From Sarea resinae (lineage: Eukaryota): a stretch of DNA of 64,000 bases. Where the stretch lies: assembly GCA_026026165.1 (NCBI GenBank), contig JAPEUD010000007.1, forward strand, positions 248,001 through 312,000. Reading direction: 5' to 3'. The notes beneath the pieces were generated by a model that saw only the letters and a list, made by a program, of their open reading frames with translations, had not been told where the DNA came from and did no database searches. A program made the translations under genes and the position numbers. Below are positions 3,001-6,619 of this stretch, in pieces; the stretch's first letter is position 1; each line of letters opens with the position of its first letter.

Positions 3001-4265
3001 GCTGGAGCGCCCCATGGCCGTCAATCCATCAGACCCCCATCTTGACTTGGCCCGTATGAGATTACTGCGACTGCACAGTTACCCGTAACCCGTAACCCCG
3101 TTCCCAGCCAAGTTGCTTTTGCGTCATATTCTCCTTCATAACCAAAGGGATAAGGTAATAATCTCAATCCGCTCGGCTCACAGGCCGCCTAGTTTCTAGG
3201 GTAATTCTAGTTCCCCTTCAACACAGTTAAGGGGGCAAGGTACCTACCTACCCATAGCTCGATGCATACCCATACCCATACCTGAAGCCATGCCATGACC
3301 CTGCCCTTTTCACCATACCCTTCTTATCCTACGGCCACTTGCTGCGTACTTCCCTTTCCCCCATCATTAGACCCTTGCCCATTCGATGATAATAATGCTA
3401 CTTCTACTGTACTCGCAACGTAAAACAGGTACGAGCGGAGGTACCTTGACCTTCCCAAGACAGAGCGAGACAGGGCAGTAAATTGTGAGAAGAGACATGG
3501 AATATGGGACAGGTCCATCCAAATCGTCAAGGGCCCAGGAAAAAAAAAGGAACAGACCACAAACCACGCCTACTAACACAACAAGCCCGGAGTATATATC
3601 TATCTCGACCCTTCCCCATCCCGATCCTTTATTTTTTTCTTTGACTGTCACAAGCAGACACAACAATAATCTTGCCACCAACCATCTGCATCCACATCGC
3701 CTATTACCGGGCTCTTCCATCATCCTCGGCCCCCTTTGCTGTCCTGTGATAGATCTCTTTGCTCGGCCGCCTGGCTTCCCACCTCGGAAAAGAGCTTTCC
3801 CCGTTTGTGGTTCGTAAATCGACCTGTCGCAGCCATCATCGCCAGCAGCCGTCCCGCCGGAAATTACATTTATTGGCGAAAAAACCCTTTCAGACAGCTC
3901 CGGCATTCCTAAGAATTCTAAGGATTTCCGTCCTCGCCGATCCAGTCTCACTTGCGTTTACGATTACGACTGCAATATTTTCGTATCGCGCCTGGGATCT
4001 CTTCCCAGCAGACAGCTACAATTGCAGCTTCAGCTCCAGCTCCAGTTCCCAGCTTCGGGCCCCCGAGGGAACTGCGTCAGACGCACACGCACACACAACC
4101 CTTGTTTCTGTGAGTCAGCCCAAGGGTGCAACCATCGGCACAATGATCCCTTTTATTATAAATGGCGCTCGAAGCTTGCCCTGAAGAACTGCTTGCTAAT
4201 GATTTTCGCGTTTACAGAGAGTTATCACCGTCTCTATGATCGTTAGAGAAATCTGTCCTTGCAAT

Positions 4266-4334
4266 ATGGGTCGCGGCGCATACGACACGACCGGAGTTAA
4301 GAAACCGCCTCATCCACCGCCCAAGCGAAGTTGA
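4266..4334 (+). CDS. Candidate 22-aa micro-protein MGRGAYDTTGVKKPPHPPPKRS (32 aa if the weaker in-frame ATG at 4236 is used)
   Basis: ATG at 4266 has A at -3 and G at +4; stop TGA at 4332-4334. Upstream are TATATA (3593) and a CT-rich stretch, and the + strand has no ATG from about 3510 to 4142. 5' UTR intron signals: GTTCGT 3810 or GTGAGT 4110, branch GCTAAT 4195, CAG 4217. A 3' UTR intron runs 4449-4507 and AATAAA occurs at 5221. No larger credible ORF lies in this unit. Confidence 0.55.
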   Translation: MGRGAYDTTGVKKPPHPPPKRS

Positions 4335-6619
4335 GTTTCGCGGCCGGTTATAAATGAAAGCGTGTCAGTGATAAGGCTGTCTGGATGGATATCACGTTGG
4401 CTATCTTTCATTTGGAGCTCGTCTGGGAGGAAAACTCCTTTTCCTGAGGTGAGTCTCGACCCGTTTCAGCATGACGTGCTTCTCCCCTGACTAAATATTC
4501 GCGAAAGGGCCGATCATACTTGGTCACCATCACCACTGTTCTCATCACCAACAAAACTACTATCGCCGACAACAATGGATTTGATTTTCAACGCTCGCTT
4601 CTCAATCACCGGCACGCATACGATCATATTGTAATCTCGTCGAAAGACATCACCTTCTCAACACCTTTTCTATTTGATCTCGCAATCGAAACGAAGCGAT
4701 CATTTCCTTAGTCCGATACCCAACACACTGTACCAATATTTCGGATTTGGCATCGTTAGCGGCGGCTCTCCTTACTTCGTCTTACCACAAAAAGTCCTTT
4801 CTCGGCGTTCATCTAGAAAACGGCGGCCGCACGGCACAATGGGATATCACAAGAGGCATTTCTTCTTTTTGGGGCTCGGAGGGGCATATACTGGGTGGAA
4901 GGGAAAAATCGGATAGACTTGCATTCGAAATTTGGCAGTTCATTCTGCACGCTGGGGCTTGGGATCTTGTACGATATCGCTCTGGAACACCTGGATGGGA
5001 GGCGCACACAAACTACGCTCTGGAAGCTGTGATTTCGAGGAACGGATTCATGACTTCCAGTAGGTAGGAGTGCAAGCCATCTTGAGGTTGAATATTTTGC
5101 TGCTGCTGCTCGCTCTCCCACACTGGCGGCTTGGGCTTTCTAGCGGCCCAACTAGCTGGAACGGAGGCAAGGACGAATGGGCTGGTACCTGAATCTTTCG
5201 ACCTGCGATTTAGATGGAGGAATAAAATTGGGAGCATATCACGTAATACTTAGTATAATTAACATCTCATCCTTCACGAACTGGTCATGCATTTCATCGT
5301 GTTCTACTGTAATCTGCCGTTCCCATACATATGGATGAGAGTCTGCAGTTGTAATCTTGCTCTTTCGGATTTTGTTATCGATAAGGCTGTGTACAAAACG
5401 AGGTACGAGAGTAACAATGGCTCAGCAACGGACGCAGAGGTACCCAACGGCATCGTCTTCCCTGAGACTGAATCTTTTGATGACTTCGTCATGACCCAAA
5501 CCTTGTCTATCTCTTCCTCCATGTCAGAAATGCATCTAGAAGCTGTCTATCCTACCACCCCCTCCGGGACCGCCGAGGGCGCGAGGCTGCTGAGCTAATA
5601 ATGCGCTTCACCTCGCAGACCGAGACTCTAGACGTCAGACGATGCCATTCCAGGATGACATGCAGGCGACAACAATGTACGCGTACGGATCGATCCCCCA
5701 ACCAGCCTCAGATCAACCAGCAGCCACGGAATCCATCGAATCGGGATTCAAACCCTCCTCAAGATTAACCGGAGTATCGCTCAACGTATAGAGCACTGCA
5801 AGGCTGCTGCCTTGGAAGACAGATCGGTACACTCGCAGGCGTTACGCTCGACTGACCCTACCCCTGTCACAGCATCTCGGTAGCCCAATGGATGGCTGGC
5901 TGCAAGACAGCTCATTCTGCATCAACTTCATGCGCGCGTAGAGGGGCTGTGCGGCGGCTATACTGGGAAGATGACTGGTGTCGCTCCTACTGAGGATTTG
6001 GTTTGCCTCATGTTTTGCTTTCTTTTCTCCAGACTGCATCCTTAGAAATGTTTTCGAACTCGCTCGAAAGGTGCAGTAGGGGAATTTTGGATCAAAAGAA
6101 CTGCTTGCCAGTCAAAAGATTTTGATTTGTTTTCGCTACAAATTTGTTTCCGACACGCAGATATTTACAGGAACGTGGGGTTGAAGACGAGCGTTTATGC
6201 GTACAGCATTTCTGAAGTCTCTTCACATCGATATACTTGTATCTTGGGCGCTTCAAGAGCCGTTTCAGGATGCCTGTTGCGCACCACTTCGGCATCCCCG
6301 TGGCGAGTATTGCAGGATATTCAGCCGAAACATGGGCGAGGCTACACATTGTTCTGGTTAAACCCAACCTAAGTGATCCAATGATGGAGCTGCTAGTGCT
6401 GTGCCGCAACTCGTGCAAGCACTCAGCCAGACTGCGTGGCTATGGCGCTCATCTTTCTTCTCAACCGCCAAGCTCATGACTTATTTGATCTATATAGGTG
6501 CCCCGTATAATTGCTCTTGCTCGGAACCTTTTCTGTGCGCTGTTCCATCGCTTCCAGGTTATTTTCTTTTTTCCTTCTACACATATATCACGAGGGCTTC
6601 TGCATATACGAAGCGCTAG

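Follow-up and report, generated by a model that had tools for sequence, protein, structure and literature searches.

Introduction

Animals and plants offer well-documented cases of micropeptide genes with deep conservation, but filamentous fungi, to our knowledge, hardly any, as gene callers discard open reading frames (ORFs) so short. The classic fungal case of a conserved peptide is the arginine attenuator peptide, encoded by the upstream ORF (uORF) of Neurospora arg-2 and yeast CPA1. Here we describe a short ORF (sORF) on the plus strand of a Sarea resinae contig (JAPEUD010000007.1, assembly GCA_026026165.1), within a stretch of 64,000 nucleotides (nt; contig positions 248,001 to 312,000) that we call the window and in whose coordinates all positions are given. 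A first reading of the bare letters of this stretch, the original prediction, had proposed a stand-alone micro-protein gene of 22 amino acids (aa) with introns in both untranslated regions (UTRs). Our comparison of homologous loci points to positions 4236-4334 as the coding region of a stand-alone and so far undescribed micropeptide gene whose product would act in trans as a ligand, an explanation to which, taken as a whole, we assign a probability of about 0.6.

The arginine attenuator peptide and the sORF peptide have in common a length within some 24-32 residues, a conservation in fungi of the amino acid rather than the nucleotide sequence, and a position behind a 5' leader. The attenuator, however, always precedes the same main ORF, whereas the gene downstream of the sORF changes and the avoidance of AUG codons ends at the sORF; the two peptides have no sequence similarity. 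A second comparison is with the insect tarsal-less/polished rice/mille-pattes (tal/pri) peptides, which carry the motif LDPTGxY. The AYDTTG of our family slightly resembles LDPTG, and we claim no homology. As far as the relevant part of bioRxiv 10.1101/376111 describes them, the tal/pri genes also encode very short peptides with a deeply conserved core on a seemingly non-coding RNA; these peptides act in trans, as we propose for the sORF peptide, and repeat their motif in some members. According to the same part of that source the tal/pri transcripts are polycistronic, with several ORFs of 11-32 aa, whereas the sORF is mostly single, its repeats lying within one ORF in nine members.

Two further parallels concern the transcript rather than the peptide, the first being the brlA alpha and beta transcripts of Aspergillus nidulans. 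In that gene the alpha start lies within the beta intron. What the pertinent portion of PMC12810187 describes is a distal transcript whose leader is long and which has an intron, features also predicted for the sORF locus, where an inner promoter is possible as well and a brlA-like choice of start would decide which AUGs precede the sORF. In brlA, on the other hand, a large transcription factor is regulated and the uORF is a decoy, whereas here the small ORF itself encodes the conserved product; furthermore, unlike that of brlA, the proximal promoter of the sORF is deduced from two motifs, the TATA-like box of 30 and the TGAGTCA of 35 of the 42 loci. As to the second parallel, fungal mRNAs with spliced 3'UTR introns are known from Neurospora as targets of nonsense-mediated decay. 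The sORF, too, is followed in 19 of 55 unique loci by an intron-like signal, at over 100 nt from its stop codon; unlike the introns of such targets, this signal is not universal in the family and has a poor acceptor in the window.

A conserved small-ORF gene is, in summary, of a known kind, while this family and its architecture of leader and intron appear to be undescribed. The motif strings were not found in the full text of open papers (without supplements), and nothing relevant emerged from the literature on micropeptides of filamentous fungi or on Pezizomycotina uORFs and sORFs that encode conserved peptides.

Results

A family of short fungal proteins shares the sORF

When 5.8 billion sequences were searched with the 43-aa stop-to-stop frame containing the sORF, eight short hypothetical proteins were matched (E values 1.3e-6 to 0.1), including proteins of Penicillium steckii, P. 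antarcticum and Aspergillus indologenus and one Joint Genome Institute (JGI) protein of exactly 32 residues. A profile of these eight, compared with 1.84 billion cluster representatives, retrieved 154 at E<=1e-3, of which 21 at E<=1e-10. MGRGAYDTT- and MGRGGYD-like starts, mentioned in the original prediction as occurring among very short fungal hypothetical proteins, were indeed found by both the protein and the profile searches. Further named members belong to Annulohypoxylon, Rostrohypoxylon, Anthostomella, Eutypa, Pseudogymnoascus, Monilinia, Cercospora and Aureobasidium, and the named members span four classes of Pezizomycotina (Eurotio-, Dothideo-, Leotio- and Sordariomycetes); lichen fungi are probably also among the hosts. 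Homologous loci were picked from metagenome contigs by a pattern encoding NMGRGAYD, eight of the 11 residues of the core, which gave 163 matches, 151 of them encoding a relative; 80 loci were kept. None of 75 pattern matches in viral contigs was confirmed as a relative.

The peptides consist of M-I-x-R-E, about four variable residues, an invariant core and a Pro/Lys-rich tail ending in a basic residue. The core, N-M-G-R-G-A-Y-D-T-T-G (N10-G20), and P24 are invariant in 43 aligned peptides (the window and the pattern-picked loci), and nearly all proteins of the pattern-free profile search keep the core, with variants that include GRGS and GRGG. The tail varies, with 20-25 codons from core to stop and the endings KPR, PPK, KRR and KRS. 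In 76 of 80 loci (all except L037, L049, L064 and L078) an in-frame ATG precedes the core by 9-10 codons, and a stop follows the first codon of the core after 20-25 codons, again in 76 of 80 (the exceptions being L037, L056, L064 and L078); among the motif-bearing family proteins, 112 of 149 end 18-25 residues after the motif start.

Across 56 unique sequences, codon positions 1 and 2 are conserved at 0.82-1.00 and position 3 at 0.34-0.82, mostly below 0.6, a variability of the third position that holds outside the NMGRGAYD pattern codons too. Pooled pairwise counts over 45 unique cores gave a proportion of synonymous differences (pS) of about 0.69, which is saturated. The nonsynonymous-to-synonymous ratio (pN/pS) was 0.62 over the N-terminal part and 0.17 over codons 8-13; its value in the pattern codons, 0.005, is partly a product of how the loci were picked. 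The other two frames gave 1.37-1.42. By blastn of window positions 3000-6600 against the loci, all matches fell within 4228-4334, and among the window ORFs of at least 25 aa in 1-12000 only the sORF and its antisense shadow are shared with more than two loci. As judged from aligned sequences, these comparisons show that purifying selection on the protein maintains the 32-codon frame in at least four Pezizomycotina classes. The synonymous-biased conservation and conserved stop proposed at the outset as a check were thus both found (pN/pS of 0.17 outside the pattern, stop in 76 of 80 loci), and the earlier claim of a tiny Pro/Lys-rich peptide missed by gene callers is supported by the 151 loci, the 154 representatives and the coding pattern of their substitutions. 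It could still be argued, from the very shortness of the ORF and from the weak opposite-strand tblastn matches given by the same nucleotides, that there is no gene here and that a chance ORF lies on a conserved DNA or RNA element. Against this stand the three-base periodicity, the saturated synonymous sites, the conserved start and stop, and a pN/pS of 0.005-0.17 in frame versus 1.4 out of frame, while an origin in one recent lineage is argued against by the saturated synonymous sites and by the named taxa; we consider the absence of a gene extremely improbable.

Start codon and form of the product

After splicing, the first ATGs would be, precisely as stated in the original prediction, those at 4236 (tctATGa, a weak context) and 4266 (aatATGg, a strong one), which share a frame closed by the TGA at 4332-4334. 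Translation from 4266 yields MGRGAYDTTGVKKPPHPPPKRS and translation from 4236 yields MIVREICPCN followed by MGRGAYDTTGVKKPPHPPPKRS, 32 aa in total. Although ORF, frame and stop of the proposed 22-aa micro-protein stand, its start and length probably do not, as the 32-aa form is favoured by the presence of the upstream ATG in 76 of 80 loci. Because the upstream Met and the I-x-R-E that follows it are conserved (56 unique sequences), and because the Met equivalent to 4266 is often replaced (in 37 of 149 motif-bearing family proteins, by Phe in 22), the product most likely starts at 4236. Given the weak context of 4236 and the strong one of 4266, however, both the 32-aa and the 22-aa forms may be made wherever the internal Met is present.

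AlphaFold2, supplied with the 43-sequence alignment, predicted no secondary structure (predicted local distance difference test, pLDDT, 76; predicted template modelling score, pTM, 0.17). In nine of the 149 members, 2-3 tandem copies of the core and its KP-rich tail are found in one ORF. Tandem-copy members are P0019, P0026, P0030, P0032, P0040, P0041, P0071, P0085, P0086 and P0139; those with a name are Xylariales (Annulohypoxylon, Rostrohypoxylon, Anthostomella), with a core that reads GRGSYDT[TS]G. A very short precursor with an invariant core, multi-copy in some Xylariales, is also what could be expected if the core were the mature product of a processed or modified peptide, either pheromone-like or resembling the ribosomally synthesized and post-translationally modified peptides (RiPPs). 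The 41 distinct peptides, however, contain a single core, with neither a hydrophobic N-terminal signal nor Kex2-type KR sites flanking it; the repeats, seen in only 9 of 149 members, also lack KR flanks, and there is no CaaX end. RiPPs, moreover, usually have variable cores and conserved leaders, and no tailoring-enzyme family appeared when Pfam was run on the flanks of 18 loci and, non-exhaustively, on the window (ORFs of 45 aa or more in 1-6700, together with 36 large ORFs selected from beyond that range). A precursor of this sort is hence very unlikely in our opinion. Two further ideas, N-myristoylation of the 22-aa form and a likeness of YDTTG to the DxxG of GTPases or the DKTG of P-type ATPases, were dropped as unsupported.

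A long AUG-free leader precedes the sORF

In the window, the plus strand lacks any ATG between those at 3504 and 4143, and this gap of 639 nt, noted in the original prediction as about 630 nt, is the longest of 1194 ATG-to-ATG gaps, the next ones measuring 526 and 518 nt. When the 300 nt upstream of the splice donor were pooled over 40 unique loci (12,000 nt), seven ATGs were counted versus 112.7 expected on dinucleotide composition, while CAT occurred 218 times versus 226 and the other trinucleotides were near expectation as well. Counted back from the donor, the ATG-free run has a median length of 479 nt, and 37 of 40 loci reach at least 265 nt; at random positions the median is 52 nt and 8% of the runs reach 265 nt. 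The intron and the short leader after it, pooled in the same manner, contain 64 ATGs in 5,850 nt. Avoidance of AUG in the leader, combined with an AUG-bearing intron, is the pattern expected from selection for unimpeded scanning to the sORF, and it independently supports the view that plus-strand transcription begins far upstream and that the intron is removed, both of which we predict from sequence patterns.

The TATA box and CT-rich region from which transcription had been proposed to begin are present as sequence, TATATAT being followed by 70% pyrimidine in 3600-3660; among the 42 loci, an upstream TATA at a similar distance occurs in only one other (L047). In 14 of 42 loci, among them the window, a sequence conforming to TC[TA]CA[CA][CTG]TGC occurs 95-167 nt ahead of the donor; in L071 the distance is 747 nt. 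The two next longest ATG-free runs of the plus strand, 40835-41361 and 20917-21435, may mark other long AUG-free leaders in the window.

The predicted 5'UTR intron and its unusual signals

The three ATGs that follow the leader (4143, 4162 and 4199) all lie inside the candidate intron, and both their positions and the splice signals of the intron that had been predicted to end at CAG 4217 were confirmed in the sequence. This segment has the features of a spliceosomal 5'UTR intron, with the branch A 18 nt from the AG. A strict model demands a donor of GTRAGT type, a YAG acceptor with a CTRAY branch 8-45 nt ahead of it, and the removal of all intervening ATGs; 27 of 42 unique loci agree with it, and the median intron length is 121 nt. 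From acceptor to start codon the distance ranges over 8-42 nt and is most often 18 nt (13 loci), which is also its value in the window. Comparison among loci thereby shows the sORF to be the first ORF after a long AUG-free leader, from which a conserved, predicted intron would remove the AUG-bearing part.

The donor 9-mer is GTGAGTCAG in 29 and GTGAGTCAC in four of the 42 unique loci, and almost always GTGAGTCA[G/C], which contains the bZIP-type site TGAGTCA (TGA[GC]TCA in 35 of 42); by comparison, donors at the downstream intron (GTACGT, GTAAGT, GTGAGT) are much more varied. Furthermore, 30 of 42 loci have a TATA-like box within the intron, versus 9% of random 130-nt windows. In three loci of Eurotiales type (L010, L038, L043) the donor is GT[GA]AGTTCT without the site, and a TATA-type box is found 32-42 nt before the donor instead. 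A uniform TGAGTCA donor and an intronic TATA-like box are ill-suited to a plain intron, and it is possible that a second, proximal promoter resides inside it. The same two features would also fit a plain promoter located just upstream of the sORF, a reading that would however need another explanation for the intron signals.

Table 1. Features of the sORF locus, in window coordinates.
Feature	Position	Strand	Details and basis
TATATAT, candidate distal TATA box	3593..3599	+	sequence
AUG-free leader, putative exon 1	3507..4109	+	0 ATG versus 4.8 expected from dinucleotide content
Motif TCTCACTTGC in exon 1	3946..3955	+	recurs in homologous loci
Candidate 5'UTR intron, 108 nt	4110..4217	+	donor GTGAGTCAG 4110-4118, branch-like GCTAAT 4195-4200, acceptor CAG 4215-4217
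TATA-like box TATAAA in intron	4157..4162	+	74 nt before ATG 4236
Exon-2 leader, 18 nt, acceptor to start codon	4218..4235	+	sequence, homologous loci
sORF	4236..4334	+	32 codons and TGA; encodes MIVREICPCNMGRGAYDTTGVKKPPHPPPKRS; internal in-frame ATG 4266 gives 22-aa form
Candidate 3'UTR intron, 59 nt	4449..4507	+	GTGAGT, branch-like CTGAC 4487-4491, AAG acceptor
Conserved non-coding 3' block, contains AAAAGTC..CGGCGTTCATCTAGAAA	4754..4852	+	nhmmer, weak window match, E 0.0012
AATAAA, possible poly(A) signal near earlier-proposed 3' end	5221..5226	+	sequence only

Neighbouring genes

The next gene on the same strand is a Rab5/Ypt51-type GTPase in at least 25 loci (the arrangement of Aspergillus or Penicillium), the ARP2/3 subunit p16-Arc in five of the 18 Pfam-scanned loci (L023, L036, L050, L052 and L072; a related cluster of ORFs spans nine loci), and a NACHT-ankyrin NLR at 6620-10332 in the window. 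Such a change of neighbour from one lineage to another speaks for a stand-alone unit. The sORF could nonetheless be thought of as a uORF of the downstream gene (the NLR here, Rab5 or ARP2/3 p16 elsewhere) that acts as the arginine attenuator does, as that gene lies on the same strand in all three contexts and the sORF sits behind a long leader, like many regulatory uORFs. The neighbours, however, offer no single conserved main ORF and are 1.0-3.5 kb away, AUG avoidance in the leader ends at the sORF, and ATG density after the stop is near expectation, with 142 ATGs versus 159.5 expected in the first 300 nt, a density near expectation over 900 nt too, and 35 ATGs between the sORF stop and the NLR start. 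On differing neighbours and post-stop ATG density alike, the earlier statement that the sORF is not a uORF of a downstream main ORF is therefore supported, and we regard the opposite view as highly doubtful. A conserved ORF downstream of the sORF was not found across the family, and the largest ORF between sORF and NLR (5287-5595) had no homologue within a near-length range. The idea of a conserved upstream neighbour was rejected, since the minus-strand ORFs upstream in six loci resemble neither each other nor the window.

The region downstream of the sORF

An intron-like signal 117-177 nt after the stop was called in 19 of 55 unique loci by a pattern that needs a YAG acceptor, so that the window is not among them; it was not called in the other 36, which include the whole group with p16-Arc downstream. 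The candidate 3' intron of the window is weaker than the 5' one because its acceptor is AAG rather than YAG. Of the introns that had been proposed for both UTRs, then, the 5' one is supported by the comparison (strict model in 27 of 42 loci), while the 3' one remains weak. The conserved 3' block was detected with an nhmmer profile built from five loci; it begins in the window at +491 and ends at +589 from the core, and lies on the same strand at a similar offset in 28 other loci, 450-700 nt downstream of the first codon of the core (in four loci, 353-455 nt). The block has indels of lengths other than multiples of three, and it includes a 4-bp hairpin with compensatory changes in other loci, poorly kept in the window. 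A second sORF before the 3' intron (MTPQRG...) is present only in close relatives and absent in the window, and was discarded as a family feature. No intron-less copies or poly(A) ends, as in cDNA-like contigs, were found among the loci.

These downstream elements bear on whether the sORF acts in cis. In such a case the nascent peptide, with its core in the exit tunnel and its polyproline/basic end at the peptidyl-transferase centre, would stall the ribosome, and the RNA would be the effector, its fate being set through nonsense-mediated decay (by means of the 3'UTR intron) or through the 3' RNA block. As in arrest peptides, it is the peptide and not the nucleotide sequence that is conserved; the tail is rich in consecutive prolines; and both the intron-like signal after the stop and the non-coding block with its covarying hairpin would find a place in this scheme. 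However, the core-to-stop distance (20-25 codons) and the tail sequence both vary, tandem duplication of the whole module in nine members is unexpected of an element that depends on tunnel geometry, the 3' intron is missing from the calls in 36 of 55 loci, p16-Arc group included, and no conserved ORF lies downstream. We find a cis-acting sORF rather unlikely. The lack of predicted structure, the tandem modules and the variable tail lead us to favour instead, if only moderately, a linear-motif peptide that acts in trans over an arrest peptide that acts in cis.

Surroundings of the locus in the window

The large ORFs of the window carry fungal domains (Zn2Cys6, NACHT-ankyrin, EB1, SAP18, Prp18), and the closest named relatives of one of its enzymes, 72-76% identical, are from lichen-type and Dothideomycete fungi. 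Positions 1-6600, about 6.6 kb, are unusually sparse for the window, having no recognisable protein-coding gene except the sORF. Positions 1-6700 contain 95 stop-to-stop ORFs of 45 aa or more, none of which scored above the cut-off of any Pfam family, and the protein atlas search gave no usable match. A permissive Rfam search of 3000-6700 returned as its sole match a sub-threshold snoRNA-like element on the minus strand (5252-5308; 21.6 bits, versus a gathering score of 55), and because this match was far under threshold, the ideas of a snoRNA host and of a riboswitch were abandoned. The NLR-type gene, on the plus strand, encodes a protein that is helical at its N-terminus and also has an NPHP3_N/NACHT part and a long array of ankyrin repeats; the gene is probably split by introns near 7036-7634.

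Unusual family members

Of 18 longer predicted proteins that hold the motif, 17 have no Pfam domain; the eighteenth, P0146, was rejected as a false match, as Pfam identified it as an unrelated bacterial DUF11 repeat protein. In L037, L064 and L078 the core is embedded in a far longer open frame that lacks the customary start or stop, and a NEQWQALIALHRTLLHEHH stretch is found upstream of the core in L037 and downstream of it in P0132, a protein without a Pfam domain; these four may be decayed copies or fusions.

Two members were found in bacterial surroundings. On metagenome contig L056 (3347-3530), a family member occupies a spacer between bacterial sdhA/sdhB and zapD, lpd and panC. The contig has 13-38% GC in the stretch profiled, and the codons of the member are AT-adapted; its stop is lost, so that the frame runs 50 codons past the first codon of the core, and YDTT has become YDIT. 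Either a transfer from fungus to bacterium or a chimeric contig would account for this copy. The other, an intact member of 31 aa with start and stop (L081:2263-2358), is on a contig whose title assigns it to a Rickettsiales metagenome-assembled genome, where it occupies a spacer of 940 nt and lower GC that is flanked by a tyrosine recombinase and an ORF of 556 aa, with HflX close by; no other locus was matched among 185,579 prokaryote species genomes.

Discussion

Our results are best accommodated by a micropeptide gene with its own mRNA, which we infer to start somewhere after 3507 and to reach at least to about 4850. Ribosomes would scan the AUG-free leader and initiate mainly at 4236, with some leaky scanning to 4266, and the unfolded peptide would act in trans as a linear-motif ligand whose invariant 11-residue core sits in a highly conserved pocket of a partner, while the polyproline/basic tail might give a second contact, of SH3 type. 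Retention of the intron would place decoy AUGs ahead of the sORF and turn its translation off, and the intronic TATA-like box, together with the TGAGTCA that overlaps the donor, could constitute a proximal promoter within the intron.

Several of our observations weigh against this explanation. As the metagenome loci were selected with the pattern, conservation of the eight NMGRGAYD codons is partly by construction, and, since the unique loci include close relatives, the locus counts are not independent events. Fifteen of the 42 loci fall outside the strict intron model, owing to AAG acceptors or off-consensus branches, even if most are near-consensus, and in L047 the donor, GTGACTCAG, keeps the TGAGTCA site and is spoiled as a donor (GTGACT, poor). 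The TATA-like box and the TGAGTCA site would also suit the plain promoter discussed above. Both the promoter and the SH3-type contact are read from consensus motifs, and the conserved non-coding blocks downstream leave room for a function at the RNA level.

A more ambitious proposal would join most of these elements: a regulatory ligand of about 32 residues, common to all Pezizomycotina, with an 11-residue core that has stayed the same from the divergence of the classes onwards, and controlled at three levels. At the first, there would be a choice between a distal start with a long AUG-free leader and a proximal TATA promoter in the intron; at the second, a bZIP site (Gcn4/CpcA- or AP-1-type) would double as a splice donor; and at the third, the retained intron would put decoy AUGs before the sORF. 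As the transcript would carry the conserved 3' RNA hairpin, it could be a bifunctional RNA, and the sORF copies in intergenic spacers of two unrelated bacterial contigs would represent fungus-to-bacterium transfers. We offer this joint reading as tentative and, with all its parts taken together, improbable.

That a first-pass reading of raw sequence can reveal real genes missed by annotation pipelines is one lesson of this work. The locus itself is a clean natural case in which a long leader avoids AUG codons and the intron contains them, and it provides a testable model for splicing-controlled translation. Constraint of the kind seen here, on an 11-residue core whose synonymous sites are saturated, usually marks contact with a core cellular machine. 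Because the hosts of the family include plant pathogens, industrial moulds and, probably, lichen fungi, the function of this peptide, once defined, would be of broad relevance.

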